Shown piece by piece: positions 1,293-63,123 of a stretch of DNA of 64,000 nucleotides. Source of the DNA: a virus (Duplodnaviria > Heunggongvirae > Uroviricota > Caudoviricetes); the IMG/VR virus record IMGVR_UViG_3300005260_000047. The stretch is one strand, 5' to 3'. The position numbers were made by a program, and so were the translations under genes. A model generated the notes under the pieces. The model was not told the DNA's origin, did not search any database, and worked only from the letters and a program-made list of their open reading frames with translations. How positions within the stretch are numbered: the first letter of the stretch is position 1; the number at the start of each line of letters is the position of its first letter.

Positions 1293-2537
1293 CTATCGAG
1301 ACAGGCCGCCAATCTCTACTTTGCGCACCGGATATTCCAGCTCGATGCAATAGCCGCCGGCGTCGGCGGAGTGTTCCACGCCGGCCGCCTTGTCTACATC
1401 GCGCGTGCCAGGCTTGTAAATGGTTTGTTCCAGCGCGTTGATGAAATGCTTGCAGCGCGCATCGACCTTCAACCGTACCGTGCCGTCGGCCGCCTTCAGC
1501 ATCCTGTTTACGGCATTGACGCGGTCAGCCACGAACGGATGCTTGCGGCGGTATTTGATGCGCTTGAAGCCTTTTTCTCGCAGGATGTCCAGGTCGGTCT
1601 CGCCGCGGGCGTGCTGGCGCTGGCCGCCGGCGGGGTCAGGGTAGACCACGATCTGCACCTGCTGACGCCAGTAGCGCTTCTCCAGCTCTTCGCAGACCTC
1701 TTCCGTGTTGGATCCGAACAGTACGATCTCATCCACCGCCCACAACTCACCGTTTTTCTGCGGCTGAAAAATCACCGCAGACATCGGGTCGATGTTGAAG
1801 TCCATACCAACCCAGATCGGCAGCTTCGGATTGAAGGCGTATTGGTCAACATGCTCGTTGCGGTCGAACGGATAGTAGACGCGGCCGGACATGGTTTCGA
1901 AGGATGCTTCAAACTCCTGCTTGAAGGATTTCTCGTCCATGTCGGCGCGCGCCGCCTCGATCTCGGACACAGGGATGAACGGCGACGTGATGGTCGGGAA
2001 TTGCCAGGACTCCCACAGTCCGCGCGTGACGTTCTTCGGATCCTGCCCCTTCTGGTAAATCGTGTAGAGGTAGTTGTAAGCCTTGGGCGTGCCGATGAAG
2101 ATTGCGTGGCCGCGGCGGTCAGCCAGCGTCGGGCGCAGGACTTTTGTCCAGGTGTCCTCGTCAATATCCTGGAATTCGTCCAGCACCAGAAAGTCCACGC
2201 CCACGCCGCGCAGCGAATCGCCCTTGTCGGCGCCCTTCAGTTCGATGCGGGTGCCGTTGACCAGCGTGATCGCCATATTGGTCTCGTTGACCTTGCGAAT
2301 CCAGCGCTTCGGGATAGCCTCCAGCAGATCGTTCCACATGATCTGCTTGGCCATCTTGTAGGTCGGCGCCACGTACCAGATTTTCGACTTCCGTTTTTTG
2401 GCGCGGGTAATGATCAGCACGCGGGATAATGCCGTCTTACCCCACCGGCGGCCGGCGACGACGACGCGAAAGCGCGCCGACGACTTGTAGACCGTCATCT
2501 GCTTGGGATGCAGCCGCAACGTGCTTCGCATCGCCAT
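1293..2537 (-). CDS. terL: Terminase large subunit (ATPase + nuclease)
   Basis: Walker A 'VVAGRRWGKTAL' and Walker B 'FLVLDEFQDI'. The C-terminal RNaseH-like nuclease region carries acidic residues. ATG at 2537, 1 nt after the terS stop. The track ORF 1293..2633 carries a non-coding-looking 32-aa N-terminal extension. Confidence 0.9.
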   Translation of the reverse strand: MAMRSTLRLHPKQMTVYKSSARFRVVVAGRRWGKTALSRVLIITRAKKRKSKIWYVAPTYKMAKQIMWNDLLEAIPKRWIRKVNETNMAITLVNGTRIELKGADKGDSLRGVGVDFLVLDEFQDIDEDTWTKVLRPTLADRRGHAIFIGTPKAYNYLYTIYQKGQDPKNVTRGLWESWQFPTITSPFIPVSEIEAARADMDEKSFKQEFEASFETMSGRVYYPFDRNEHVDQYAFNPKLPIWVGMDFNIDPMSAVIFQPQKNGELWAVDEIVLFGSNTEEVCEELEKRYWRQQVQIVVYPDPAGGQRQHARGETDLDILREKGFKRIKYRRKHPFVADRVNAVNRMLKAADGTVRLKVDARCKHFINALEQTIYKPGTRDVDKAAGVEHSADAGGYCIELEYPVRKVEIGGLSR

Positions 2538-2538
2538 G

Positions 2539-3168
2539 TCAGTCTTCCCTCTCCTCGACCACGCCGTTGTCGCCGTCAGGCCCGTCAGCCGGATCCTGCA
2601 CCGTCGGCAAGTCATCCAGGCCGGCATCGTCACGCTCGCGCAATTCCTGAATCTGCTCAGCGGTCAGCTCGGAAATGACCAATTCCGGCAGTTCGTCCGG
2701 ATCCACTGCGTCCGGCTTGTCCAGACCCAGAACGGCCCATTTCTCGGCGCGCGCCTTGGAAAGAACGCTCATCGCAGCATCCAGCGTCTTGATGTTGTTC
2801 AAGGCGGTGGCGATCGGAACGTTGTCCTGTTTGGTCTTGAGGATTTCATTCCAGGTGAGCTTGCCGATGGCGGATGCCATCTTGTAATGCTCTTCCTTGG
2901 TTTCCCTGATGCGCGCAGCCTGCACGGTTGCTTCATCGACTGCGGCTGCGGCCAGCTTTTCCTCGACCTTCTTCTTGGTGGCGGCTGCCTTGGCGCCCTT
3001 GATGACGCCATGCTTTTTGAAATGCCGCTCGAAGGTCGAGATCGACTTGCCGAACTTCTTGACCAAGTCCTCGTAAATGAAGTCGCCGGATTCCCACATG
3101 GCTTCTGCCTCGCGCCACTGCTTTGGCGTGAGGTTGCGTGTTTTCGGCTTTGTCGCGGTCTTCATCAC
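2539..3168 (-). CDS. terS: Terminase small subunit (HTH DNA-binding)
   Basis: Immediately upstream of terL. N-terminal HTH-like 'YEDLVKKFGKSISTFERHFKKHG' and an acidic C-terminus. The track start at 3168 is GTG; the in-frame ATG at 3165 has an AAGGA Shine-Dalgarno ~9 nt upstream. Confidence 0.6.
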   Translation of the reverse strand: MMKTATKPKTRNLTPKQWREAEAMWESGDFIYEDLVKKFGKSISTFERHFKKHGVIKGAKAAATKKKVEEKLAAAAVDEATVQAARIRETKEEHYKMASAIGKLTWNEILKTKQDNVPIATALNNIKTLDAAMSVLSKARAEKWAVLGLDKPDAVDPDELPELVISELTAEQIQELRERDDAGLDDLPTVQDPADGPDGDNGVVEERED

Positions 3169-6252: not shown

Positions 6253-6537
6253 TCACCTGCATCCGCCGTTTGCCGACTGGCAGGCGATGGTTTCTTCTTC
6301 TTCGGCGCCGTCGGCAATCCCGTAGGAGTGATTCACCGCGTGGCCGATTTCATGAATCAGCGTGTTGACGAAGCGGTCGAGCGTCGATTCGCCATCGAGC
6401 AAGATCCGGCAGTCGTCAAAGAACGTCATGCCGTAGTTCTCGCCCAAGTCCGGCGCGCCGCTTTGCACCAGATGGATTGCAAAGGTGAAAGAACCTACCT
6501 TGACGCGCGCCGGCAGCTTGGCAATTAAGTCATTCAT
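6253..6537 (-). CDS. Small HExxH zinc-metallopeptidase-like protein
   Basis: 'LIHEIGHAVNHSYG' HExxH motif in a 94-aa ORF. It resembles ImmA/SprT-like minimal peptidases. Confidence 0.45.
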   Translation of the reverse strand: MNDLIAKLPARVKVGSFTFAIHLVQSGAPDLGENYGMTFFDDCRILLDGESTLDRFVNTLIHEIGHAVNHSYGIADGAEEEETIACQSANGGCR

Positions 6538-39619: not shown

Positions 39620-40177
39620 TTAAGAGGTTTGTCGATACTGTGGTTTTTGTGAAACCCGCCAGGATTTGCCATAAACCCTGTCGAGCGCCTTTGGGATTGT
39701 GTTGCGGCTTACCCCAAGCCTTTCTGCTATTGAAATCAACTTTTCGCCAGAGAAAACCGCGCTATACGCCTGCTTAACCTGATCTTCCGAAAGCTTCGCT
39801 GATCCATTAGCAAAGCCTTTCGAGTCGATTAAGCCAGTCGCAATGCCGTGCTGGATGTTCTCTAATTCAGTTACCCATTCAAGATTGCTTACGGCGTTAT
39901 TGTGCTTATTTCCGTCTTTATGATTTACCCCCGGCTTATTGTTTGGATTTGGGATGAACGCTTCTGCAACGAGCCTGTGAACACGATGCGTTCTAACCTC
40001 CCCGCCCTTCGCAAGACGAATGGTCAAGTATCCAGTGCAGTGTTCCGACAGCTTTCGTTCCATACCTGGCACGAATTGTCTCCCCAGCCGCGTGTGAGGC
40101 ACCCATCTTTCTAATGAAAAGATGCGTCCATCTTCCGTAACTGCGTAAAGCCCTTCGTAGCCAGGTATTGCTTTCAT
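39620..40177 (-). CDS. HNH homing endonuclease (NUMOD4-like N-terminus, HNH_3, C-terminal HTH)
   Basis: 'GYEGLYAVTEDGRIFS', 'VNHKDGNKHNNAVSNLEWVT' and 'ISIAERLGVSRNTIPKAL'. Confidence 0.8.
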   Translation of the reverse strand: MKAIPGYEGLYAVTEDGRIFSLERWVPHTRLGRQFVPGMERKLSEHCTGYLTIRLAKGGEVRTHRVHRLVAEAFIPNPNNKPGVNHKDGNKHNNAVSNLEWVTELENIQHGIATGLIDSKGFANGSAKLSEDQVKQAYSAVFSGEKLISIAERLGVSRNTIPKALDRVYGKSWRVSQKPQYRQTS

Positions 40178-41013
40178 TTCGTGAATTCCGTTTCAACCAG
40201 CTCACGGTATTGACGCCAACCGAAGAAATTCTTTGACTGTTGTGTTGCCAAAGAAAGCGGGTAGCCGCTATGCTCAATGGGTGACGCATGCAGCGGACGG
40301 CTACCAACCAGGCGGTCATACAGCGCCAGGTCTTCCTCGATATTTGGCGTGCGGCCGTCGTGCGTCAGATAGGACACGCGCGCAGAACGGGCGGCCGAAA
40401 TCTTGGCGAGGAAGCCAGGGTCATGCCGATACATCACTCGTTCATCTGCCGTTACATAGGGCAAATGCCAGGCGTCGGCAATCTGGCGATCACGCGGACG
40501 CAATACCGGCTGCGAAGCCTGCATTGCCGCTTTCATCTGAATCGCCAGTTCGTGAATCTCTGGCTGTGCGTCCGGATGGTCGCGCAGTTCAAAGAAGTTA
40601 TCGAACTCGGTGGCGGTCATGATCACCGAGATATGCAGGAACGGCTCCAGGATGCGGTTGACCACTTGCTTGTGTGCGCCATCACCACTCATAACAGCGG
40701 CATAGTTGGCGGCTTCATTAGCAGCTTGTCGCCACAGGCGTTGCACATTTGTCAGTTCATCGCCGGTCAGTTGCTCGTTCGCCTGCATGCCTGGCTGGTT
40801 CTTACCCCAATGGATAGGCATGGCGGGTTCGGTGCGCACCTGCTCGATCATCTTGGCGACCGGAATGGCGCGCGAAGACGAGGCGTTACGGCTGAAAACG
40901 CGGTGCGTCATGAACTCGGCATGGATAAAGCGCGGGTAACGCAACTGCAATGTGGTCAGGCGCTTGCCATGATAGGCAACGCTGTCCTCAATCACTTTAG
41001 CTTCAATGGTCAT
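40174..41013 (-). CDS. thyX: Flavin-dependent thymidylate synthase ThyX
   Basis: ThyX signature 'RHRVFSRNASSSRAI' (RHRX7S). Start MTIEAKV with an AGGAG Shine-Dalgarno. Confidence 0.9.
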   Translation of the reverse strand: MTIEAKVIEDSVAYHGKRLTTLQLRYPRFIHAEFMTHRVFSRNASSSRAIPVAKMIEQVRTEPAMPIHWGKNQPGMQANEQLTGDELTNVQRLWRQAANEAANYAAVMSGDGAHKQVVNRILEPFLHISVIMTATEFDNFFELRDHPDAQPEIHELAIQMKAAMQASQPVLRPRDRQIADAWHLPYVTADERVMYRHDPGFLAKISAARSARVSYLTHDGRTPNIEEDLALYDRLVGSRPLHASPIEHSGYPLSLATQQSKNFFGWRQYRELVETEFTK

Positions 41014-41019
41014 TGTTTC

Positions 41020-41240
41020 TCCTGTTAAAAACGAATGTTGGGAGCGGTCGGATCGCACGCCCGACGTTGGCTCCAAGACCTTTCGGACAGCGGCCCATTC
41101 GGGTGGAAGTCCTACTCGGATCGATTGCACTCCCAACAGAAAGGCGCCCTACTCCGTGTTCCCGCACGTGTCGTCCTTAAAAGGTTTAAGGACACAAGAC
41201 GCCTTTCTGTTGGGCGGGTTTCCCCGCCTGGTGATCAGCC
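41020..41240 (-). ncRNA. Structured non-coding leader upstream of thyX, with nested long-range helices; class unknown
   Basis: Complementary segments GTTGGGAG(41038)/CTCCCAAC(41139), GGTCGGATCG/CGGATCGATT, CAGAAAGGCG(41148)/CGCCTTTCTG(41198) and GTCCTTAAA/TTTAAGGAC. No ORF. Not a canonical tRNA. Confidence 0.3.
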
Positions 41241-53495: not shown

Positions 53496-54065
53496 CTATA
53501 CATTTGTCCAAGACCTTCCGGTCTTGATATCAGAAATAGTCGTCTGATCAACGCCAAACTCTTTTGCCAAACGCGATACATCACCCCACCTTGCGGCTTG
53601 CAATCGCCTTTTTATTTCAATCACTTGTGACTTATTCAACGTGGCGGCGGGATTTCGCTCACCTTGAAAGTCGGTTCCATGCTTTTTCTTGTCCGCATGG
53701 TTCGCAGTGACCGTCTTCCACTCAAGATTCGTTAGCGCGTTATTTGAAGGATCGCCATCGTTGTGTGCGCCATGAACATTGCGCGGATCCCCTGGACGCG
53801 ACCCAACAAATGTCTCCAAAACTAAGACGTGAACGGACTCATATTTAACTTCACCGCCCTTCCTCAAACCCACCCGCAAGTAGCCACTAGGTTCTCGCTT
53901 TAGCTTCATCAATGTTGGAGTAGAAGCAAGACTATGGCTATTTCCGGCTCGTCTCGACAGCCAACTTCTGACATTCCCGCTGTCAGAAACGTCGTAAAGT
54001 CCTTCATACCCACGAATCTGCGCCCACTGCTCCATCACTCGATCCTTCTCAAATAAATCACACAC
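53496..54065 (-). CDS. HNH homing endonuclease (NUMOD4-like, HNH, HTH)
   Basis: 'GYEGLYDVSDSGNVRS', 'HGAHNDGDPSNNALTNLEW' and a C-terminal 'FGVDQTTISDI'. Confidence 0.8.
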   Translation of the reverse strand: MCDLFEKDRVMEQWAQIRGYEGLYDVSDSGNVRSWLSRRAGNSHSLASTPTLMKLKREPSGYLRVGLRKGGEVKYESVHVLVLETFVGSRPGDPRNVHGAHNDGDPSNNALTNLEWKTVTANHADKKKHGTDFQGERNPAATLNKSQVIEIKRRLQAARWGDVSRLAKEFGVDQTTISDIKTGRSWTNV

Positions 54066-54447: not shown

Positions 54448-55455
54448 TTAGGCTGTCAGCATGGCCACCAGCTTGGGGGTCAGCTTTTCAGCGCGAACGA
54501 TATCGGCAAATTCACGCTTGCTGCGGCGCTTACCTTCCCACTCCACGTAACCCTTGCTCGGCTCCGGCAGCTTCTTTTGCTCCAGCAGCACTTCGACCAG
54601 CGAGAATTCCTTGTCGAAGTAAGCCACGCCGGATTCATCAAAGGTCAGCCGCATAGCGGTTTCCTTAAACGGCTTGGTCAGCTTGGATTTCACGCACTGA
54701 ATGTTGATCTTTTGCCCGACGAATTCCTTGCTGCCGGCAACCTGCTGCATGATCTTTTCGCGACCAAGCGCCAGCCGTGCAGTGGCGTAGAATTCCATCG
54801 CCTTGCCGCCAGGCGTGGTGCGCGGGTCGCCGTAGACGACGCCAGGCTTCAGTCGCATTTGGTTCAGGTAGACGAAGATGGCATTGAAGCGCTCGGCATA
54901 CTGCGCCATCGATTTCAGCGTGGTGGAAGTCACGCGCGCCAACGCTGTCGTGTCGTTCATCGAATATTCATCGAAATCTTTTTCCTGCATCGACTTCGGC
55001 ACGGCGGCAGCAATCGAGTCCAGCACGATCAGAACCGGCGCGTCTTCCGCGATCACCTTGTTTTCGCGAATCCATTTGGCATATTTGGCCGCCATCGTAT
55101 TGCCCTGCTCCCATGTTTCCGGCTTTTGATAGAACCACAGCGGCTTGTCCGCCTTTAAGCCGTAACCATGCACGGCGACATCTTCATTGAAGGAGCGCTC
55201 CCAATCGATGAAGCCGGCGGCGCCGCCCATGCTTTGTGCGCGCGCCATCCAGTCGGTCGCCAGCGCGGTCTTGCCGGTGGATGATTCGCCAAATACTTCG
55301 ATCATGCGACCGTAAGGCAAGCCACCTTCGGCGCGGCCAGACATGATCATATTCAGCGGCGCAAAGCCGGTATCGACAAACTGTGTCGGTGTCGCATTGT
55401 CGGCGTTGCCGCCGAAGGCTTTCTCGAAGTCTGCAATTAGTGCAGCGGTTGTCAT
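54448..55455 (-). CDS. RecA/UvsX-family recombinase
   Basis: Walker A 'GESSTGKT' and Walker B 'LIVLDSIAA', a RecA-like core. Confidence 0.75.
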   Translation of the reverse strand: MTTAALIADFEKAFGGNADNATPTQFVDTGFAPLNMIMSGRAEGGLPYGRMIEVFGESSTGKTALATDWMARAQSMGGAAGFIDWERSFNEDVAVHGYGLKADKPLWFYQKPETWEQGNTMAAKYAKWIRENKVIAEDAPVLIVLDSIAAAVPKSMQEKDFDEYSMNDTTALARVTSTTLKSMAQYAERFNAIFVYLNQMRLKPGVVYGDPRTTPGGKAMEFYATARLALGREKIMQQVAGSKEFVGQKINIQCVKSKLTKPFKETAMRLTFDESGVAYFDKEFSLVEVLLEQKKLPEPSKGYVEWEGKRRSKREFADIVRAEKLTPKLVAMLTA

Positions 55456-55463
55456 AATGTTTC

Positions 55464-56366
55464 CTATTGTTTAAAAAGGGTGGTGAACTCGTCCAGGTTT
55501 TTCAGGATCGAGACAAAGGACAGCTCTTCGCAGATGCCGGCGAAGGCGTCGATATCGAACCGGCCGGCATCCATCGTGGTCAGCTCCTTCTTCGGCGGCT
55601 CGACGCGAAACAGTTGCATCAGTTGGAAATTGCGCTTGTAAAGAGCGCGCCCCTCCGGCGAAGCCAGCTTCTTGTGCTTGGTCAGTCGTGGCACAAAGGT
55701 GCCGGTATCGACTTGCTGCCAGAAGTTGCGCACTGAACCGAATTCCGCCAGGAATTCCGGTGCGCCCTTCTCGCCAATGCCGCCCACGCCCGTGATTTCG
55801 TCAGACGTGTCGCCTTGCAAAATCTTCGATTCGAGGAACTGGAAGGGAGATTTGCAGCCGGTCTTGTCGTAGAAATTCTTGTGATCCACGAACTTGGAGT
55901 CGTCGCGCAAATCGCGCCACCAGACGGTCGGGCCAACCAACTGGCGCCAGTCTTCGTCGTCTGTCACCAAGCCGACGCGGTTGTTCGGGTCGGCGGTCAG
56001 CTTGCGCACGAAGTAGCCGGCCAAGTCGTCCGCTTCCTTGTCAGCTACCGTCAACTGCCGCACACCGAGGTGGCGCAGCGCGGTGGTGATGAAGGGAACC
56101 TGCGCCTTGTAAGCGGCTTTTTGCGCCAGCTTGACAGGATCGCTCTTGCGCGATTCCTTGTAGCCAGGGTAAAGCTTGTAGCGCCAGTCAGCGTGTCCAT
56201 CCCACAGCACCAGCGGCGTGTAGGAGGTCGTGCGGGTGCGCAGCGTTTTCATAGTTTTTAAAAACCCGAAAATCGCCTGCGTTTCCATGCCGTTGGCGGT
56301 TAGCTTGGTCGCGTGATTTGCAGCGCGGCCAATTGAGTTAGCGTCAATCAAAAGTGTCTTGGACAT
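55464..56366 (-). CDS. 5'-3' exonuclease / flap endonuclease (FEN, RNase H-like)
   Basis: PIN-like N-terminal 'LLIDANSI' with acidic clusters. H3TH 'GVGGIGEKGA'. Confidence 0.75.
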   Translation of the reverse strand: MSKTLLIDANSIGRAANHATKLTANGMETQAIFGFLKTMKTLRTRTTSYTPLVLWDGHADWRYKLYPGYKESRKSDPVKLAQKAAYKAQVPFITTALRHLGVRQLTVADKEADDLAGYFVRKLTADPNNRVGLVTDDEDWRQLVGPTVWWRDLRDDSKFVDHKNFYDKTGCKSPFQFLESKILQGDTSDEITGVGGIGEKGAPEFLAEFGSVRNFWQQVDTGTFVPRLTKHKKLASPEGRALYKRNFQLMQLFRVEPPKKELTTMDAGRFDIDAFAGICEELSFVSILKNLDEFTTLFKQ

Positions 56367-56435: not shown

Positions 56436-57296
56436 TCAGATGTCGTTCAGGAGATCGTCCAGCTCGGAGTCGAGCGCAACTTCAGTGCTTGCCGGCGCAG
56501 CTTTAGTGCCGGATTCAGCGAAGTCAGGCACGTCTTCGAACGCCTGGGTTGGCGCTGCCAGACGAGAAGCCGAGGTTTTCGGCACGTCGCCGCCCGACGA
56601 GGCTGACGGCGCCGGCAAGAAGCCCGCTACCGAATTGACAGCGGCGATCGCCTTACGCTTTTGCTCTTCAGACTCTTGCGCAACGTATTCATCCAGGTTG
56701 TGCAATTGCGTGAGCGCGGCGGCCGGCACCTTGTAGACTTTCGGGCCGATCTGGGCGTCATACTTCGTGGTCAGGCCAGTGCCTTCGCGGGTCATGATGA
56801 TTTCCTGGCCCATTTCCGGATCCAGCGGCTTGCCTTCCCATTCCATGATGATTTCAGTCAGCTTGGCAAACACGCCGCGCTTGAGTTCGAGAATGACCGG
56901 CGTATTCGGCTGATCGGAGTCGAGCATCAGGGCGTTGACGAGGATGGTCGAGGAAGCTTTTGCTTTCGCCAGCACTTCCATTGCATCATCGTCAGCGCCG
57001 CGCGAGGCGGAAGCCAGAGCGGAGCAGACTTCGCATGGCTTGCCGTAAGTGGCGTTGTTGCACAGGTAGACCGCCTGAAGCTGGTCGGCGGTATCTTTGA
57101 TGAAGTGCTGACCGAAATCATGGAAAAATGTCGGGTCGCCTTCGGGGTTGATTGCGCCGGTTTTGGGATCGACTGCGCGCCAGCCAGGCAGAATGCGGAC
57201 GCGGTTTTTGCCAGGCTTGAGCTTGGCCGTCTTCTCCATTTTCTTCATCGATTTTTTCTTGTTTGCCAGGAGTTCCATCAGTTTTGATTGAGCCAT
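56436..57296 (-). CDS. ssDNA-binding protein, T4 gp32-like (Zn-binding)
   Basis: 'H...H...C-x9-C-x2-C' (LCNNATYGKPCEVC) matches the gp32 zinc-site spacing. The acidic C-terminal tail is 'DSELDDLLNDI'. Confidence 0.55.
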   Translation of the reverse strand: MAQSKLMELLANKKKSMKKMEKTAKLKPGKNRVRILPGWRAVDPKTGAINPEGDPTFFHDFGQHFIKDTADQLQAVYLCNNATYGKPCEVCSALASASRGADDDAMEVLAKAKASSTILVNALMLDSDQPNTPVILELKRGVFAKLTEIIMEWEGKPLDPEMGQEIIMTREGTGLTTKYDAQIGPKVYKVPAAALTQLHNLDEYVAQESEEQKRKAIAAVNSVAGFLPAPSASSGGDVPKTSASRLAAPTQAFEDVPDFAESGTKAAPASTEVALDSELDDLLNDI

Positions 57297-57448: not shown

Positions 57449-58471
57449 TTAAGCAGCCTGACGGCTGACCGCCGATACCGCGCGCGCCTTCACGTCATCA
57501 TGCGCAAGCGTGCGCACCTGGCCTTTGGTTTCTTCGCGGCGGTCAGCGCCCAACTGCACGATCATGTCCTTGCGGTGACGCAACGCCTCGACAGCCCCCT
57601 TGTTGAAGCCTGACAGCATTTCCGCTTCGATCACCATGTTTTTGGCTTGCAGGTATTCCGGATCCATTTTGACGGCGTTTTCAACCATCTTTTCCGTCAC
57701 CTTCTCGCCAGACAGAGACAGTGCCTTGCGATGCTGGTCATACAGCTTGGCTTCGACCACTTCGAAACGCAACTTAACCCGCGCATGCTGTGCTTCCGCG
57801 CGTGCCGCTTCAGCAGCATGGAATGCAAACAATCCCGCCTGCCCCATCATCGCGCTGTCCAGATTGTTGTCGGACACCGTGATGTCGCTCTTGAACGAAT
57901 CAATGTCCAGGTAAAACTGCAATTGCGGCGCTTTCTTGGCCGGCTTCGGGTTCGGATGCGCCGGCTCTTCCAGTGCGGCAGGCGTAGTCGCCATTTCAGC
58001 CACGCCTGCCACAACAGGCGACGCAACGTGCAAAACGGCCGCCTTGACCGGCTCGTCCAACTGCGCTGCGGCTGGCGCGGCTTGTTCGGCGTCGAGTTCC
58101 GCTTGCAGGGCTACCAGCTCGTCCACGTCAGCCTGGCCACCCTGGCGCGCCAGGTCAGCTTGCGCTAGTGCGACCGCGTCATTCGTGGACACTTTGCCTT
58201 TTGCATTCAATTCAGCGGCAGCCGTCGTAATGTCGGCGTCACTTACCACGGCGACGCCTTCTGCGCTCGCCTGGTCGCGTAACTGCTCGGCATCGATTTC
58301 GTCCAATCCATCCAGGTCGGACTCATTCAGCTCGGCGGTCGGTGCCGGCGTCGGTGTCGCTGCGGTCGCCACAGTTGGCGTCACAACCATATCTTTGGTT
58401 TCTGCGTCGAGTTCTGCCATCAGAGCATCCAGCTCTGCATCATCCATCGGGATTTCTTTTTGCGCTGCCAT
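57449..58471 (-). CDS. Hypothetical protein (acidic low-complexity N-terminus; C-terminal domain possibly UvsY-like recombination mediator)
   Basis: It sits next to the SSB and UvsX-like genes. The similarity to UvsY is only a weak pattern match. Confidence 0.4.
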   Translation of the reverse strand: MAAQKEIPMDDAELDALMAELDAETKDMVVTPTVATAATPTPAPTAELNESDLDGLDEIDAEQLRDQASAEGVAVVSDADITTAAAELNAKGKVSTNDAVALAQADLARQGGQADVDELVALQAELDAEQAAPAAAQLDEPVKAAVLHVASPVVAGVAEMATTPAALEEPAHPNPKPAKKAPQLQFYLDIDSFKSDITVSDNNLDSAMMGQAGLFAFHAAEAARAEAQHARVKLRFEVVEAKLYDQHRKALSLSGEKVTEKMVENAVKMDPEYLQAKNMVIEAEMLSGFNKGAVEALRHRKDMIVQLGADRREETKGQVRTLAHDDVKARAVSAVSRQAA

Positions 58472-58551
58472 GTTTATCTCCTATAAGAGTTTGCTTCGTG
58501 ATTCAATACTACCTACCGTTTGCAGGATTTTGTTATTCAGTTGTGACTTAT

Positions 58552-59811
58552 TTATGCAAGCATATCGGCCACCTTTTCAAATATCGCCTTCAAGACTTCC
58601 GCCTTGCTAGAATCGAAAATGATCTGTTGCGCATTGATGCCGCAGACGATTGAGGCATCCAGCGCCGGATCGTAAATCACCCTGCCCGCCAGCTCCGCGG
58701 TGCCACCCTTGACGCCAGGCACGAAGCGCTTGATGGCGGCACTCCCCAACGCTACGATGATCGGCGGCTTGATCAGCGCAATCTCATGGTCAAGAAACGC
58801 CTTGCAGCCGTTGATCTGCCCGTTGGAAAGGAACTTGTCGTTTTTCTTCGCCTTGACCAGCGTCGTGTAATAGCCATCGGCCGGCGACAGCCCGACATCC
58901 GTAATGGCGGCTTTGATGAAATCAGCCGCATCCCCTTCAAGCAGCTTGTCTGCTTTTTCTTCCTGCCAGGATGGGCAGTCTGATACCACCATGAACTTGA
59001 TGTTAGCCTTCATGCGCACGGCCGGATGAGGCTGACCAGCCAAATCGCAACCTTCACACTTGCGGTAATCCTGGATCAAATGAATGATCTTGGTGCGCAA
59101 GAACGGATCCTTCACATCGGTCGAGCGATCCGCCTTGACGCTATCGATAATCAGTCCTGGCATCAGGTCGAGCTGATCCTTGCGGCGATCCAGATGCCGT
59201 GCAGGTTTGCTTCCCGCCTCAATATCGGCAAGCGCACCAACCAGCCGCAGATTCTCGACCACCTTGGCGTTGACCTTCGAGCCTGGCTGTGAAGCTGCCA
59301 GCATGAATTCTTCAGCCGTATCGAAGCGGCCCTTGCATGGCGAATCTTCATCCAATCCATAGACTGCTTCGATCGTGCCGTCGCGCTTCTTTTTCTGCTT
59401 GACGACTTTCCAGCCCCGATTGCGCTCCCGCAATTCAACAATGCGCTTTGCCGTGTTTTCAGAAATGCCCTTGACGCTTGAGAAGGGCGCCAAAAGATGC
59501 TTGTCGTCGGGAATAGTGAAGCGATGTGTGGAGCGGTTGACATCGGGCGGCAAGACCTCGATGCCATACTCGCGCGCATCCTTGACCAGCCCTTCGAGCT
59601 TGTCGTCGCCTACGATCGACAGGCAAGCGGCAAAGTATTCAGCCGGATAGCGCACCCGCAGCCACATTGTCCAATAACTCACAATCGAATATTCAATGGC
59701 GTGTGATCTGTTGAATCCATATCCGGCGAACGCGGCGATCTTGTCGAACAGACTATCTGCCGCCGACTCACTCATGCCATTTTTAAGCGGCTTGACACTC
59801 TTGATTTTCAT
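58552..59811 (-). CDS. DNA polymerase III alpha (DnaE-type) C-terminal fragment, plus a possible UDG-like C-terminal domain
   Basis: '[43 protein letters not shown]' matches DnaE '[35 protein letters not shown]'. This continues where the 60539..62893 ORF loses homology. Confidence 0.7.
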   Translation of the reverse strand: [419 protein letters not shown]

Positions 59812-60496
59812 TATTCATCCTCACTAAATTGTGAATCTGCGTCCGCGACACATCAAACATTTCCGCCAACTTTTGAATGGTGGCACCCTCCGCCCGCTTT
59901 TTCTTTACCTCCAGCTTTTCGCTGTCAGTCAAAAAACGCACGACACGTTTCGCCTCGGTCAGCGGGCCGCCAGCATTGGGCCACTTCTTTCCTGCGCAGA
60001 TATGCCACACGTAGACATCAGGCAAGTTGTAGTCTTTGCCGATCGAAGCAAGCGACTCGTCATTCGCACGCCGGCACCTGATTGCCACAACATCCTTCTC
60101 CTTCAACTTGTGCCAGGAAATCAGCTCGCCTGCTGGTTGCGTTCCGTGCATCAGCTTGTCTTCGCAGTTCTCTGTTGGCGTGCCGTAGCGCAGGTTAGCC
60201 AGTCTATTGTTGGACGGGGTGTTATCACCGTGAAGAACGTAATACCCTTCAGGGCAAGGCCCGACGAACGCCTCCATCACAAGCCGGTGTCCGAAATCAC
60301 AATGCCTAACTCCCGCCACCGAGAACTCAAACCAGTGATAACCCCAAGGGTGGCGACGCGACTTGAGAATTCGCCCGCGCGCCAGCCGCTTATGGCCGTT
60401 CTTGCAGTTAACCATCGAATCAACCCTCCTAACGCGGCCTTGATCCGATACCTCGATCACATTTCCAAACCTGGCGAGTGGCTTCCAGACTTCCAT
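59783..60496 (-). CDS. HNH homing endonuclease inserted within the DnaE gene
   Basis: 'GYYVLHGDNTPSNNRLANLRYGTPTENCEDK' is the HNH motif. C-terminal HTH 'TIQKLAEMFDVSRTQIHNLV'. Confidence 0.8.
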   Translation of the reverse strand: MEVWKPLARFGNVIEVSDQGRVRRVDSMVNCKNGHKRLARGRILKSRRHPWGYHWFEFSVAGVRHCDFGHRLVMEAFVGPCPEGYYVLHGDNTPSNNRLANLRYGTPTENCEDKLMHGTQPAGELISWHKLKEKDVVAIRCRRANDESLASIGKDYNLPDVYVWHICAGKKWPNAGGPLTEAKRVVRFLTDSEKLEVKKKRAEGATIQKLAEMFDVSRTQIHNLVRMNNENQECQAA

Positions 60497-60670
60497 GTTG
60501 ATTACCTTCGATGAATGGGCAAGAAAGACACGTTACACTCACCACTGACTGATGTCAACACCGTCTTTGATGGCGGTTTCAACCGTCCTTTTAATGCCAT
60601 CGACGCACATGAACTTGGCGCTGCGATGCACGCGCTTGATCGTGCCATCCTCCAGCTCGACCTCGATCTC
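59785..60670 (-). mobile_element. ~0.9-kb intervening sequence splitting dnaE (group I intron with an HNH ORF, or a free-standing HEG insertion)
   Basis: DnaE homology stops ~43 codons before the stop of ORF 60539..62893 and resumes at residue ~10 of ORF 58552..59811. The HNH ORF fills the gap. Confidence 0.5.
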
Positions 60671-62893
60671 GCCCGCCGCCGCGCCTTCGACGAACTTCTT
60701 GCGCTGCTCCTCCATCTCCGCAGGCAGCTTCTTGCCCATGATCTTGCGCAACTTGTCGGCGTCCGCCATCGAATACCCCGCCAGGTCACGCGCCACCTGC
60801 ATCACCTGCTCCTGATAGACAATCACGCCCGACGTGGACTTGAGCGCCGCTTCCATGTTCGGATGGTCGTAGTAGGGAGCTTTTGCCCCCTGCTTGATTT
60901 GCACGAAGTCTTCCATCAGGCCCGAATCCATCGGGCCAGGACGGTAGAGCGCGGTCGCCGCGGTAATATCTTCGAACGTCAGCCGGCCGCCCTGCGCCAA
61001 GTCGCGCAGCAGCTTTTTCATGCCAGGTGATTCGAACTGAAACACGCCGGTCGTGTCGCCACGACCGAAACTATCCATGATGTCCGGCTCTTCCAACGGC
61101 AGGCTGATGTACGAAATATTCCTGCCATGCCGATCCTTGATGTATTGACGGGCGATCTCCAGCACATCGAGTGTGGACAGCCCCAAAATATCCATCTTGA
61201 CCAAGCCCCAATCTTCCACTACGCGCTTATCCCAATTGACTACAGGAATGCCTTCCTCGTCGCGGGTCTCCAGCACGGCGCGGTTGATCAGCGGCTCGCC
61301 ACCGACCACCACACCGGCCGCATGCTTGGCAAACGCCCGCATGACGCCTTCGAGCTTGAGCGCGTGATTCCAGATTTCAGCATGCTCGTCGCGGAATTTC
61401 TCCAGCTCCGGCACGACTTTCGCCGATTCAGTCAGCGTGTAGGACTGACCATGCTCTTTCGGCACCAGCTTGGTTGCCGACAGCGTCAAGTTATCCAGCT
61501 CGTAGACGCGGCCCGCATCGCGCAGCGCGGAGGCTGACGCCAGCGTCGAGAAGTTCGAAATGCCCGCCACACGATCGGCGCCGTGTCGATCACGCAGGTA
61601 GTCAATCACCTCATGGCGGCGCGTGGACATGAAGTCCAGGTCGGCGTCGGGCAAGTCAAGGCGCTCCGGATTGATGAAACGCTCAAACAGCAAATCAAAG
61701 CGCAGCGGATCGACATCAGTAATGCCAACCAAGTAAGCGACCAGCGAGCCACCGACCGAACCACGGCCAGGGCCGACGATGATGCCGTTCTTCTTGGCCC
61801 ACATGACCAGATCCTCGACCAGCAGAAAGTAGCCGGCAAAGCCCATCTTTTTCAAGACCGCCAGCTCGTATTTCAGACGCTCCTGGTATTTGGGAATATC
61901 GGCAGCGTCAGGCTTGTAACCCAATATCGGCTGCGTAAAGCGGCGCTTCCAACCCTCGATGCATTTCTTGCCGAGCGCTTCGAATTCATTGGTCGCCATC
62001 TGCGGCAGCGAGACCGGCAGTTTCTTGAATTCATAGGTGCAGGCGGCGGCCAGCGTGTCGATGTTTTCGAGACCCTGCTTCCACAATGCTGCTTCATTAA
62101 CGCCATTCCATTTAACCTGACGCTTGTGCGCTTCGACCATTTTCTTGCCAAGATTGAGCGCTGGCTTGAAGCCAAAGTCGCGCACATGCTGGACGGGCCG
62201 GTAGCGCACCGACATTTTCGTGTTGGTCGTGATGGCATTCAATACCGACAGCGTGCCGGCATCAGCATCGTCCTGATACATGAATGGGTACGTGACCAGT
62301 GTCGGCAGACTACAATCCTTCGCTACCTTCAACGCCTTTGCGTTTAACGTATCAAAGAGTGGCGTATTAATTGGCGTCAGTTCCACATACAAGCGCTCAA
62401 AATTGCAGCGCAGCGCCGCGATCCGGTCGGGGTATTGCGGATGATGAAACAGATTGAAGAAGTCGCCAGTCGTGACCGCGACGCCCTCCAGCTCCAGCAC
62501 GTCCTTCCAGCCGACGCGAGAATGATAGTAGAAGTATTCCTTGCTATTGGCTTTGGACAAGAGCTTCAACAGGGAATTGATGCCGCGCTCGTCGGTGGCG
62601 TAGACCTTGATCATCACCAGCGGGTTCGGCTCTTCCTTGATGCCGGAAGATTTGGAAGGCTTGCGGTAGGTCGGATCATCCACCACGCGCAGCCGGCAGC
62701 CGATGATCGGCTTGATGCCGGCTTTCTTGCAGCGGTTGGAAAAATCAACCATATTGTGAATGGACATATCATCCACCAGCGCGACCGACTGATAGCTGTG
62801 CTTTTTCGCCTGCTCGATGATGTGATCCACCTGAAGCAGAGAATTGCCGACCGAGAAGTCAGAGCGCACCGATAAGGCGTGATTGATGTTCAT
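60539..62893 (-). CDS. dnaE: DNA polymerase III alpha (DnaE-type) N-terminal part (PHP, palm, thumb, fingers)
   Basis: PHP N-terminus; 'GPGRGSVGGSLVAYLVGIT', 'DPLRFDLLFERFINPER...PDADLDF' (catalytic Asp pair), 'KMDILGLSTL', 'GDTTGVFQFES', 'ALYRPGPM' and 'VYQEQVMQVA'. Confidence 0.9.
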   Translation of the reverse strand: MNINHALSVRSDFSVGNSLLQVDHIIEQAKKHSYQSVALVDDMSIHNMVDFSNRCKKAGIKPIIGCRLRVVDDPTYRKPSKSSGIKEEPNPLVMIKVYATDERGINSLLKLLSKANSKEYFYYHSRVGWKDVLELEGVAVTTGDFFNLFHHPQYPDRIAALRCNFERLYVELTPINTPLFDTLNAKALKVAKDCSLPTLVTYPFMYQDDADAGTLSVLNAITTNTKMSVRYRPVQHVRDFGFKPALNLGKKMVEAHKRQVKWNGVNEAALWKQGLENIDTLAAACTYEFKKLPVSLPQMATNEFEALGKKCIEGWKRRFTQPILGYKPDAADIPKYQERLKYELAVLKKMGFAGYFLLVEDLVMWAKKNGIIVGPGRGSVGGSLVAYLVGITDVDPLRFDLLFERFINPERLDLPDADLDFMSTRRHEVIDYLRDRHGADRVAGISNFSTLASASALRDAGRVYELDNLTLSATKLVPKEHGQSYTLTESAKVVPELEKFRDEHAEIWNHALKLEGVMRAFAKHAAGVVVGGEPLINRAVLETRDEEGIPVVNWDKRVVEDWGLVKMDILGLSTLDVLEIARQYIKDRHGRNISYISLPLEEPDIMDSFGRGDTTGVFQFESPGMKKLLRDLAQGGRLTFEDITAATALYRPGPMDSGLMEDFVQIKQGAKAPYYDHPNMEAALKSTSGVIVYQEQVMQVARDLAGYSMADADKLRKIMGKKLPAEMEEQRKKFVEGAAAGEIEVELEDGTIKRVHRSAKFMCVDGIKRTVETAIKDGVDISQW

Positions 62894-63123
62894 TTCAACA
62901 GGACTCCAATAGCAATACCGACAAGAATGATGATGTTAGCTACAGCGACTCGTCTGAGAAATGTTGATGCGCTGGCGCGACGACGCTCCTGGATCCGGCC
63001 GTCAGCATCACGGATAAACTCGACAGTTTCATCCCGCGTCTCTGCACTGAGGCGGGAAAGAAATACCGCCTGCTGTTTATTAAAACCCACCTTTAGGGCT
63101 TCTGCGTATGTGCCACCTTTCAT
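62890..63123 (-). CDS. Hypothetical protein with a C-terminal transmembrane helix
   Basis: 77 aa. Confidence 0.4.
   Translation of the reverse strand: MKGGTYAEALKVGFNKQQAVFLSRLSAETRDETVEFIRDADGRIQERRRASASTFLRRVAVANIIILVGIAIGVLLK

Follow-up and report, generated by a model that had tools for sequence, protein, structure and literature searches.

A phage dnaE gene divided by an HNH endonuclease gene inside a putative splicing-inactive remnant of a DnaE-type split intein

Genes that have been broken by mobile endonuclease genes are known to be repaired through RNA splicing, through protein splicing or, in the case of the NrdA protein of phage Aeh1, by assembly tails of unknown origin. Here we describe a dnaE gene, encoding the alpha subunit of DNA polymerase III (Pol III), that is divided by an HNH-type endonuclease gene and whose two halves carry short extensions resembling parts of a split intein. 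The gene lies in a 64,000-nt stretch of IMG/VR record IMGVR_UViG_3300005260_000047 (Caudoviricetes), hereafter the window, to which all coordinates refer unless another locus is named. Group I introns with HNH endonuclease open reading frames (ORFs) often sit in phage DNA-metabolism genes, T4 gene 60 uses ribosomal bypassing, and the nrdA locus of Aeh1 was reportedly presented by Friedrich in 2007 as a case of genes in pieces.

In the nrdA-a/mobE/nrdA-b arrangement of Aeh1 the tails have been shown to be essential, oppositely charged and derived from the insertion, and the heterodimer forms without them (PMC3045599). It was speculated by the authors of that study, without sequence evidence, that the tails are remnants of a degenerate intein (Crona, 2011; PMC3045599). 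The so-called fractured genes, which include three metagenomic dnaE loci, consist of split intein halves separated by a free-standing gene for an endonuclease; their split inteins possess all six Hint motifs, the five catalytic residues and N-parts of 88-105 aa, and their endonucleases were found to be of the GIY-YIG and Vsr-like kinds, HNH types having been predicted and not observed (Dassa et al., 2009; PMC2677866). The natural split site of inteins is also their canonical site of endonuclease insertion (PMC6801210), and according to one account split inteins associate via an anionic region of the N-terminal piece (IntN) and the cationic C-terminal piece (IntC) before any chemistry takes place (PMC11766414, citing Shah, 2013). 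Comparison of sequences makes it probable, in our judgement, that the DnaE of the window is made as two polypeptides, that the break lies inside a dead intein remnant, that this remnant re-joins the halves non-covalently and that the cassette homes. For the narrower proposition, that the extensions (a C-terminal tail on the first half and an N-terminal head on the second) are a dead split intein kept and spread as a non-covalent heterodimerisation clamp for the replicative polymerase, we regard the balance as even.

The locus comprises three consecutive ORFs on the minus strand: ORF1 (60539..62893, 784 aa), ORF2 (59783..60496, 237 aa) and ORF3 (58552..59811, 419 aa). ORF1 contains the Pfam domains PHP, DNA_pol3_alpha (1e-80) and DNA_pol3_finger (4e-52), ORF3 contains HHH_6 and UDG (PF03167, 33.6 bits against a gathering score of 24.3), and on the 1146 positions of NCBIfam model PRK05673 ORF1 covers 9-732 and ORF3 covers 726-853. 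Across the two ORFs both databases recover the PHP domain, the palm with its catalytic aspartates, the fingers and the helix-hairpin-helix (HhH) in DnaE order. Both ORFs fall below the DnaE equivalog cut-offs, because each represents part of the protein and because the usual C-terminal OB/tau region has been replaced. The breakpoint was set by alignment with the uninterrupted DnaE proteins of Pseudomonas phage hairong (1127 aa) and Stenotrophomonas phage ANB28 (1102 aa), which share with the window a downstream synteny of hypothetical genes followed by a 5'-3' exonuclease and then RecA. DnaE homology stops at ORF1 residue 740 (...FVEGAAA) and restarts at ORF3 residue 10 (KNGMSES...), with no DnaE residues lost. 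The intervening non-DnaE insert of 889 nt (59785..60673) is composed of the tail and its TGA stop, a spacer, the HNH ORF and the first nine codons of ORF3.

Read in the direction of transcription, the DnaE-homologous part of the N-fragment (ORF1 residues 1-740; 60674..62893), which Pfam, NCBIfam and the alignment resolve into PHP, palm/thumb and the first part of the fingers, is followed by a net acidic C-terminal tail of 44 aa (GEIEVELEDG...DISQW; 60542..60673), which a profile search of the PDB and hhalign match to the last ~40 residues of the N-fragments of DnaE split inteins (IntN ~57-98). The TGA stop (60539..60541) is succeeded by a 42-nt spacer (60497..60538) in which a further in-frame stop (TAA) can be read, as can an AAGGT motif that resembles a ribosome-binding site and lies 8 nt ahead of the HNH ATG. 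Next comes the free-standing gene of homing-endonuclease type (59783..60496), whose 237-aa product contains NUMOD4, HNH_3 and a C-terminal helix-turn-helix (HTH) by Pfam. Within its coding sequence lies a GAGGA Shine-Dalgarno motif for ORF3 (59818..59822), the ORF3 ATG falls within the HNH gene, 29 nt from its 3' end, and the TAA stop of that gene overlaps ORF3 codons 9/10. ORF3 begins with a net basic N-terminal head of 9 aa (MKIKSVKPL; 59785..59811), predicted to be a beta strand and aligning with the first IntC strand (MIKIATRKYL in Npu). It continues with the DnaE-homologous part of the C-fragment (residues 10-239; 59095..59784), containing the rest of the fingers, the HhH and a variable linker according to NCBIfam, Pfam HHH_6 and the alignment. 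The shared reading frame of ORF1 and the HNH ORF was considered as a meaningful feature and rejected; two stops intervene, and the frames differ in relatives.

The window derives from a contig of 260 kb from a soil metagenome. Five contigs that were assembled independently carry an identical ORF1 protein, so the split is not an assembly or frameshift error, and the same three-gene arrangement was found again in more than 25 other loci. An earlier reading of the window from its sequence only had proposed a DnaE-type polymerase gene split by an HNH ORF, with DnaE homology ending some 43 codons before the ORF1 stop and a gap of ~0.9 kb filled by the endonuclease ORF. The ORFs, their domains and the break all proved to be as described, residue 740 and the 44-aa tail giving the first of these distances and the 889-nt insert with its complete endonuclease gene the second; the alignment with uninterrupted phage dnaE that it recommended places the insertion point exactly, with nothing missing, and the assembly or frameshift artefact that it named as a possible refutation is excluded by the five contigs and the recurrent loci. 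A Megablast search of 50,697 phage records with the 4.6-kb region returned no match, and relatives are detectable at the protein level only. The best explanation is that the window dnaE belongs to a phage or phage-plasmid of the Nickievirus/SSU5-like group. A genome scan with the tail and its flank matched only the DnaE flank, in unrelated bacteria, and yielded no host information.

Conservation of the tail and head was assessed by searching ORF1 against 5.8 billion proteins and a tail profile against 1.84 billion representative proteins. Most ORF1 matches were unsplit DnaE-UDG fusions of 1120-1155 aa with up to 85% identity. A recurring class of N-fragments of 777-789 aa (64-82% identity) was also present, all of which end in the tail G-x-[IV]E[VI]xLEDGxxxxVHRxxKF...TVEE.... 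The tail is conserved in at least 14 diverged N-fragments, with seven positions (G1, E4, G10, H16, R17, T30 and E32) invariant in 14 sequences. Its profile recovered 43 clusters from the representative library, and those examined were all DnaE except for one repeat protein with seven short matches; in the N-fragments among them the tail forms the C-terminal end, even in DnaEs far more distant than the clade of the window. In all split loci examined the C-fragment starts with a head of the form M/V/L-K-I-[KTV]-x-[VIA]-[KR]-x-L. The net charge of the tail is -2 in the window and 0 to -8 in relatives (one at 0), and that of the head +3 in the window and +2 to +4 in relatives. Between the tails of the window and locus L003, the proportion of synonymous differences (pS) is 0.92 and that of nonsynonymous differences (pN) 0.07, and between relatives pS is 0.67-0.93, with synonymous sites saturated, and pN 0.07-0.50; the head behaves similarly. 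No nucleotide-level conservation was seen. Saturated synonymous sites combined with a conserved protein point to selection on the translated peptide and not on an RNA core. The tail and head are conserved as protein in dozens of diverged phages whichever endonuclease lies between them, and with none, and the module they form, not the HNH gene, is the stable feature of the site.

The content of the slot between tail and head varies widely. ORF2 of the window has the HNH_3 (6.7e-13), NUMOD4 (2.6e-5) and HTH_23 (5e-5) features of the homing-endonuclease type, and its homologs are 48-66% identical to it. In place of this 237-aa NUMOD4-HNH-HTH protein, loci L003, L004 and L008 encode NUMOD4-HNH proteins of 174-182 aa that are 35% identical to it, and L005 and L007 an unrelated NUMOD3-HNH architecture. 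L006 retains a 57-aa remnant devoid of the HNH core, L014 a frameshifted internal deletion of a 192-aa gene that is intact in sister phages (compare L013), and L028 an unrelated 56-aa ORF. No gene is present in the P0072 contig, L025 and L027, in which 20, 69 and 85 nt, respectively, separate stop from start. Split alleles therefore remain after decay or loss of the endonuclease gene, and the variation of the slot follows the classical cycle of homing-endonuclease invasion, decay and loss, turning over inside a split that does not revert.

The module also exists in a contiguous form. Tail matches were located within the single dnaE coding sequence of cultured phages (Salmonella phage SSU5, Klebsiella phage ST13-OXA48phi12.3 and E. 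coli phage Cyrano, among others), where a module of ~52 aa interrupts the unsplit DnaE of SSU5-like phage-plasmids. In the 1172-aa DnaE of ST13-OXA48phi12.3, ...QAQAG is followed by WIDVVMEDGTAQRIHRAEHFKCEDGKLRTVEEALDAGVKLP, then by MAVVSVTGS and then by HPGLSE...AYQFNKSH, so that the tail runs on into the head in a single frame uninterrupted by a stop. Metagenomic contiguous variants occur beside split members of the same sub-clade. A large-database search with the contiguous SSU5-like segment gave 15 fragments only, and the diversity of this form is accordingly poorly sampled. One dnaE site therefore occurs among these alleles in four states: empty, with a contiguous insert of ~52 aa, split with an endonuclease gene, and split without one.

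Sequence profiles and structure prediction tentatively place this module in the Hint (intein) fold, closest to the DnaE split inteins. Among all 177,635 distinct PDB sequences, the 14 best matches of the tail profile included 13 DnaE inteins, all aligned at IntN ~57-98 (E 0.03-0.24; Npu 4lx3, 4qfq, 2keq and 4kl5; Ssp 1zd7, 1zde, 3nzm and 4gig; 5ol1-7; 7qil). Alignment of the tail with Npu IntN by hhalign gave 90% probability and 33% identity over 40 columns; the scores of 33.3 (Npu) and 33.7 (Ssp) compare with a mean of 9.4, a standard deviation of 2.1 and a maximum of 18.2 for 400 composition-preserving shuffles. The profile of the whole module is colinear with the fused Npu intein across the split site: the tail falls on IntN 57-98, and the head pairs with IntC residues 1-10 ((M)IKIATRKYL). 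Addition of the head to the hhalign profile raised the score from 36.8 to 39.0 (91-93% probability), a match of head to IntC that appears in hhalign only, with greedy alignment or after trimming of a 4-residue linker. AlphaFold2 (AF2) was run with no templates and with family-only alignments, the tail-head chimera of the window forming the first row of a reduced alignment. For the contiguous homolog the predicted local confidence (pLDDT) was 75 (core 79-84), and for the tail of the window fused to its own head it was 71, with five concordant models. Both inputs were predicted to form a mini-domain of four short strands and a helix, followed by a long head strand (residues 52-57 in the model of the window) that completes the sheet. 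Foldseek ranked DnaE inteins first (7qil, E 0.016, probability 1.0, TM 0.57 over 61 columns; 4qfq, 1.7 Å over 40 columns).

None of the residues required for splicing is present in the module. At the N-terminal junction, ...GAxA followed by G-x-[IV]-E, there is no Cys/Ser/Ala nucleophile; block A is absent, and the alignment with Npu IntN begins at residue ~51-57. The Thr-x-x-His of block B is likewise absent, Npu T69 and H72 aligning with an invariant His and a variable Ala/Ser/Leu (RATKDHKF in Npu, RVHRSAKF in the tail). Neither blocks F and G nor the terminal His-Asn can be found: the head ends ...KPL, ...KVL or ...TAS with a counterpart only for IntC ~1-10, and the residue that follows the head (+1) is K, E, D, N or H, and never Cys, Ser or Thr. 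By these features the 53-residue module is not an intein and would represent an inner intein fragment flanking the natural split site. The HNH gene, between tail and head, lies at the position equivalent to that split site.

A complete split intein does occur in the same gene family. Locus L029 (1610..6857) contains a dnaE in three pieces with two junctions. Piece 1 (718 aa) ends in an IntN, CLAGDSMV...IKATADHRF, with Cys1 and TxxH, and is followed by a 253-aa HNH gene and by an IntC, ...FIANEIVVHN preceding C; this upstream junction has the sequence of a canonical split intein and of a textbook fractured gene with an HNH-type endonuclease. Piece 2 (201 aa), which begins with this IntC, ends in a degenerate tail, beyond which lie a 180-aa NUMOD4-HNH gene and piece 3 (388 aa), so that the downstream junction has the order degenerate tail, HNH gene and head. 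Against the tail profile the canonical upstream split intein of L029 shows no sequence similarity (score -2.2), and the affinity of the tail thus appears to be specifically with the cyanobacterial DnaE-intein type and not with the neighbouring L029 intein.

Movement of the cassette has left a mosaic pattern of identity. Relative to the nearest unsplit proteins, P0003 and P0004, the body of the window DnaE (residues 1-660) is 86-88% identical and the 50-residue flank before the break 58-60%, whereas relative to the distant split proteins P0026 and P0082 the body is 68-69% identical and the flank 82% and 76%, respectively. Identity to unsplit relatives returns to 100% within ~40 residues downstream of the break, and near-identical phages are polymorphic for the presence or absence of the endonuclease. 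This mosaic is a footprint of gene conversion with flank co-conversion, as expected for homing, and shows that the cassette spreads horizontally; together with the polymorphism it lends indirect support to a putative site-specific cleavage of the endonuclease-free allele, and homing, by the HNH protein.

Several features of the junction and its surroundings vary between alleles. At ORF1 residues 736-740 (~60674..60688) split alleles read G-A-x-[A/L]-G and unsplit relatives G-C-[E/A]-[A/T]-[K/T], so that occupied alleles without exception have alanine where empty ones have a cysteine immediately ahead of the insertion point. The difference may simply belong to the co-converted flank, or may reflect what the endonuclease targets or a splice junction of the ancestor. 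The tail-coding region is disrupted in L026 (~2400..2840), an IMG/VR locus from the L013 group: the frame of the N-fragment terminates prematurely, the tail sequence forms a short separate ORF and a deleted endonuclease remnant is present, which may reflect a decaying dnaE or a sequencing error. The spacers that follow the N-fragment stop in several relatives, L004-L007 (for example L004 ~6356..6400), share TAAGTCAC(N3)GTGAC or a similar small inverted repeat. The endonuclease genes may bring it with them as a regulatory hairpin or a promoter element. The spacer of the window does not contain this motif.

The mechanism that we propose begins with an intein inserted in the fingers domain that would have lost its outer parts, and with them all splicing residues, while a part of the Hint fold of ~53 residues was kept, namely ~44 IntN residues as the tail of ORF1 and the first IntC strand as the head of ORF3. 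A selfish HNH gene would occupy the slot between them transiently, being exchanged, decayed or lost across relatives, as tail, head and split persist and the endonuclease gene turns over. ORF1 and ORF3 would be translated separately, and the acidic tail of four strands plus a helix and the basic head strand would re-form a small Hint-like sheet by strand complementation. The sheet would tether the DnaE halves, and the fingers domain and active site would be rebuilt with neither RNA nor protein splicing, the fingers parts so joined flanking an active-site-proximal motif. The cassette, with some flanking dnaE, would move between phages by homing-type gene conversion. Non-covalent reassembly is proposed because split inteins associate through charge and because the tails of Aeh1 NrdA provide a precedent.

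A different means of restoring DnaE would be an intron, of group I or another self-splicing type, in which the HNH gene resides, with mRNA splicing yielding a continuous dnaE; the sequence-only reading had entertained this, alongside a product made as two polypeptides in the manner of the mobE-split nrdA. The abundance of such introns in phage DNA-metabolism genes and the stop codon shortly after the 5' junction, which is typical of them, speak for an intron. Yet Rfam, whose group I models that reading had proposed to run over the gap, gave no match of any kind at E<=10 in 58400..63100, and no intron match at the same threshold in relatives lacking an endonuclease gene in the slot, where an intron core would be easiest to detect. 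The fold energy of the 5' 200 nt of the insert is unremarkable beside that of shuffled sequence (z -1.4); the HNH stop coincides with the end of the insert, leaving no sequence 3' of it for a ribozyme core; the peptide is conserved at saturated synonymous sites; and SSU5-like phages have this sequence contiguous and in frame, as a translated part of DnaE. We therefore consider an intron highly improbable. For the downstream half, the ORF3 frame opens just one codon upstream of its ATG, which makes this start unambiguous, with GAGGA 6 nt before it, and equivalent Shine-Dalgarno-like motifs precede the C-fragment start in L003-L008. Neither a σ70-like promoter nor a minus-strand terminator was found between the ORFs. 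Separate translation of ORF1 and ORF3 from one transcript as two polypeptides is thus supported, both by the independent start that the earlier reading had named as evidence against an intron and by a split that outlives the endonuclease gene; the locus has the configuration of genes in pieces, a free-standing endonuclease gene splitting an essential gene whose downstream half has predicted translation signals of its own. It could be argued instead that the endonuclease gene, on inserting, inactivated dnaE and left a decaying pseudogene, with another polymerase replicating the genome, since an essential gene is normally disrupted when a mobile gene enters it. We find this hard to credit, as both halves keep full-length and highly conserved DnaE motifs, the split form occurs in dozens of diverged lineages, start signals are intact at every locus, and tail and head, the part of the gene tested for selection, are under purifying selection. 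Equally little credence is given to protein trans-splicing, in which tail and head, as a split intein of ultra-minimal or atypical kind, would still ligate the halves. The two extensions share homology with the fragments of DnaE split inteins and lie on either side of the natural split site, and a canonical split intein exists in the same gene family (L029), but the nucleophile, the block B Thr/His, blocks F and G, the terminal His-Asn and a suitable +1 residue are all absent, the entire module of 53 residues is well short of the 88-105 of the N-part alone in fractured-gene inteins (Dassa et al., 2009; PMC2677866), and the contiguous SSU5-like form likewise lacks splice-junction residues.

The main rival is that tail and head are neutral leftovers, whether derived from an intein or not, that the halves associate via their own fingers interface, and that the extensions are conserved for harmless folding or through repeated re-introduction. 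We judge this to be unlikely, though distinctly less so than the preceding three alternatives. Several observations agree with it and weigh against reassembly through the remnant: the contiguous SSU5-like form tolerates the module where no reassembly is needed, the Aeh1 heterodimer formed without its tails, and co-conversion, in moving the cassette and its flanks horizontally, can mimic conservation. By analogy with the Aeh1 halves, tail and head might serve some other role, or their conservation might do no more than spare DnaE the damage of a misfolded insert, as in the contiguous form. The same side of the balance holds the fact that separate translation and non-covalent reassembly are both deduced from sequence. 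It also holds the statistically modest intein similarity, with a best database-wide E of ~0.03 over 177,635 PDB sequences. Pfam at E<=10 reported no Hint or intein family for the tail, for tail plus head or for tail plus HNH. The head by itself is too short for a similarity test, and when it was added to the HMMER profile the local PDB intein matches became neither longer nor better and were outranked by one spurious repeat protein, a de novo TIM barrel. The cyanobacterial DnaE-intein site maps between Y31 and G32 of ORF3 (NCBIfam PRK07373 position 33 corresponding to residue 28), placing the module 22 residues upstream of it; because of this offset the module is not simply a decayed copy of the cyanobacterial allele. 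In-frame loss of both outer intein parts would have to be assumed, or else an origin in which the endonuclease gene brought only the inner intein pieces to a new site. Set against neutrality are the strong purifying selection on tail and head with synonymous sites saturated, the seven invariant tail positions in 14 sequences, the maintained complementarity of charge between tail and head, and their persistence where the endonuclease has decayed or gone, which renders recent re-introduction unlikely in those lineages. On balance, a remnant that re-joins the two DnaE polypeptides remains our favoured reading.

The remainder of ORF3 (residues ~240-419; 58555..59094), ahead of its stop codon (58552..58554), is a divergent domain resembling family-4 uracil-DNA glycosylases (UDGs), which stands in place of the usual OB/tau-binding end of DnaE. 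The resemblance to family-4 UDGs that had been noticed in this C-terminal segment is borne out by the Pfam score above gathering and by homology to PDB 1vk2/1l9g (1vk2 being Thermotoga TM0511; E 2e-8). The NCBIfam models Arch_udg, UdgX and UDG_fam4 score 41-45 bits, below their cut-offs of 125-250; catalytic motif A, GE(A/G)PG, is altered (GEGPG to SDCPS), and of the four Fe-S cysteines the third position is Ala (VKCRP to VKAKK). Because of these sub-threshold scores, the altered motif and the lost cysteine, glycosylase activity is doubtful, and the domain may bind DNA or uracil. All unsplit relatives have it as well; it is a feature of the clade unrelated to the split. Of the sequence-only reading as a whole, then, the split, the two polypeptides and the UDG-like domain have stood, the group I intron has been abandoned, and the tail/head module had been overlooked.

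A second variable region lies between the HhH and UDG-like domains, at ORF3 residues ~140-175 (~59095..59400; residues ~871-930 of a virtual spliced DnaE), where the window has an extra segment that is missing in P0003 and P0004 (identity 10% in 871-900 and 43% in 901-930) and shared by P0007 (73%). Elsewhere in the window two more free-standing NUMOD4-HNH_3 genes are located on the minus strand at 53496..54065 and 39620..40177, 31% and 28% identical, respectively, to the one in dnaE. One is situated downstream of a RecA-like gene and the other overlaps the end of a ThyX-like gene (40174..41136) by 4 nt; neither appears to split a gene. The replication and recombination module includes a gp32-like ssDNA-binding protein (56436..57296), a 5'-3' exonuclease (FEN; 55464..56366), RecA (54448..55455) and ThyX (40174..41136), all on the minus strand, and the synteny of this neighbourhood matches that of Nickievirus and SSU5-like phages. 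No tRNA genes were found in the 64-kb window.

There are precedents for the splitting of a phage gene by a gene for an HNH endonuclease, for fractured genes and for DnaE split inteins. Our literature search found no description of a non-splicing Hint remnant acting as the tails of an endonuclease-split gene, nor of the tail/head module in SSU5-like or Nickievirus-like DnaE. The locus links protein splicing with assembly tails, in that the tails of the polymerase are recognizable as the inner part of a DnaE-type split intein minus its chemistry, and a speculation on the origin of assembly tails is thereby made directly testable. Should the clamp interpretation be correct, it would supply sequence-level evidence for the proposal of Crona et al. 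that assembly tails descend from inteins, and would present one intein-derived module in unsplit, split-with-endonuclease and split-without-endonuclease states at a single site. If the tails do mediate assembly, inteins could decay into permanent structural parts of host proteins instead of being lost cleanly, which would explain how an essential gene stays split after both splicing and the endonuclease have gone. In that case phages would also have tried out already, on a large enzyme, a small natural heterodimerisation pair of 44 + 9 residues, which might be of use in protein engineering. Under the same condition the 'truncated' dnaE genes and the ~50-aa inserts of SSU5-like phage-plasmids, which are clinically relevant elements of Enterobacteriaceae, should be annotated as one system.

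Comparison with the established systems brings out both what is shared and what is particular to this locus. We know of no intein homology in the tails of T4 gp39 and gp60. The T4 gp39/mobA/gp60 locus is otherwise similar in that an essential topoisomerase is split by a mobile endonuclease gene and both products bear tail-like extensions (PMC3045599); it differs in its bypassing, which is not suggested in the window, where two in-frame stops and a 714-nt gene lie between the halves. The cyanobacterial split DnaE inteins (Ssp and Npu; 1zd7, 2keq, 4kl5 and 4qfq) share with the window a Pol III alpha host split in the fingers into pieces of ~770 + 420 aa, an acidic N-piece and a basic C-piece, and are the closest match to tail and head in sequence and structure. 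Those inteins, however, are complete (102-123 + 36 aa) and splice in trans, their gene halves are at distant loci with no endonuclease gene, and their insertion point is 22 residues downstream of the module.

Fractured genes are alike in order, with an N-half and intein N-piece, an endonuclease gene at the split site and an intein C-piece and C-half, occur mainly in phages and include dnaE among their hosts. The gene order and endonuclease position of the window agree with that class, whereas the complete catalytic split intein that defines it is lacking, being found instead at the first junction of L029; the window keeps only ~44 + 9 residues with no catalytic residues, and its endonuclease is of the HNH type. 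Aeh1 NrdA is comparable in that an essential DNA-metabolism gene is split by a free-standing endonuclease gene of the HNH family, in that the halves are translated separately from one operon (as sequence features suggest for the dnaE described here), and in having a C-terminal tail on the N-half and an N-terminal tail on the C-half, of opposite charge and derived from the insertion, with neither RNA nor protein splicing. In the window, by contrast, the host gene is dnaE and the polarity of charge is reversed, with an acidic tail and a basic head. Tail and head show detectable homology in sequence and predicted fold to a specific class of intein, which was never shown for Aeh1, and the dnaE arrangement is widespread, with an endonuclease gene that can be exchanged or absent and a module that also exists contiguous and unsplit.

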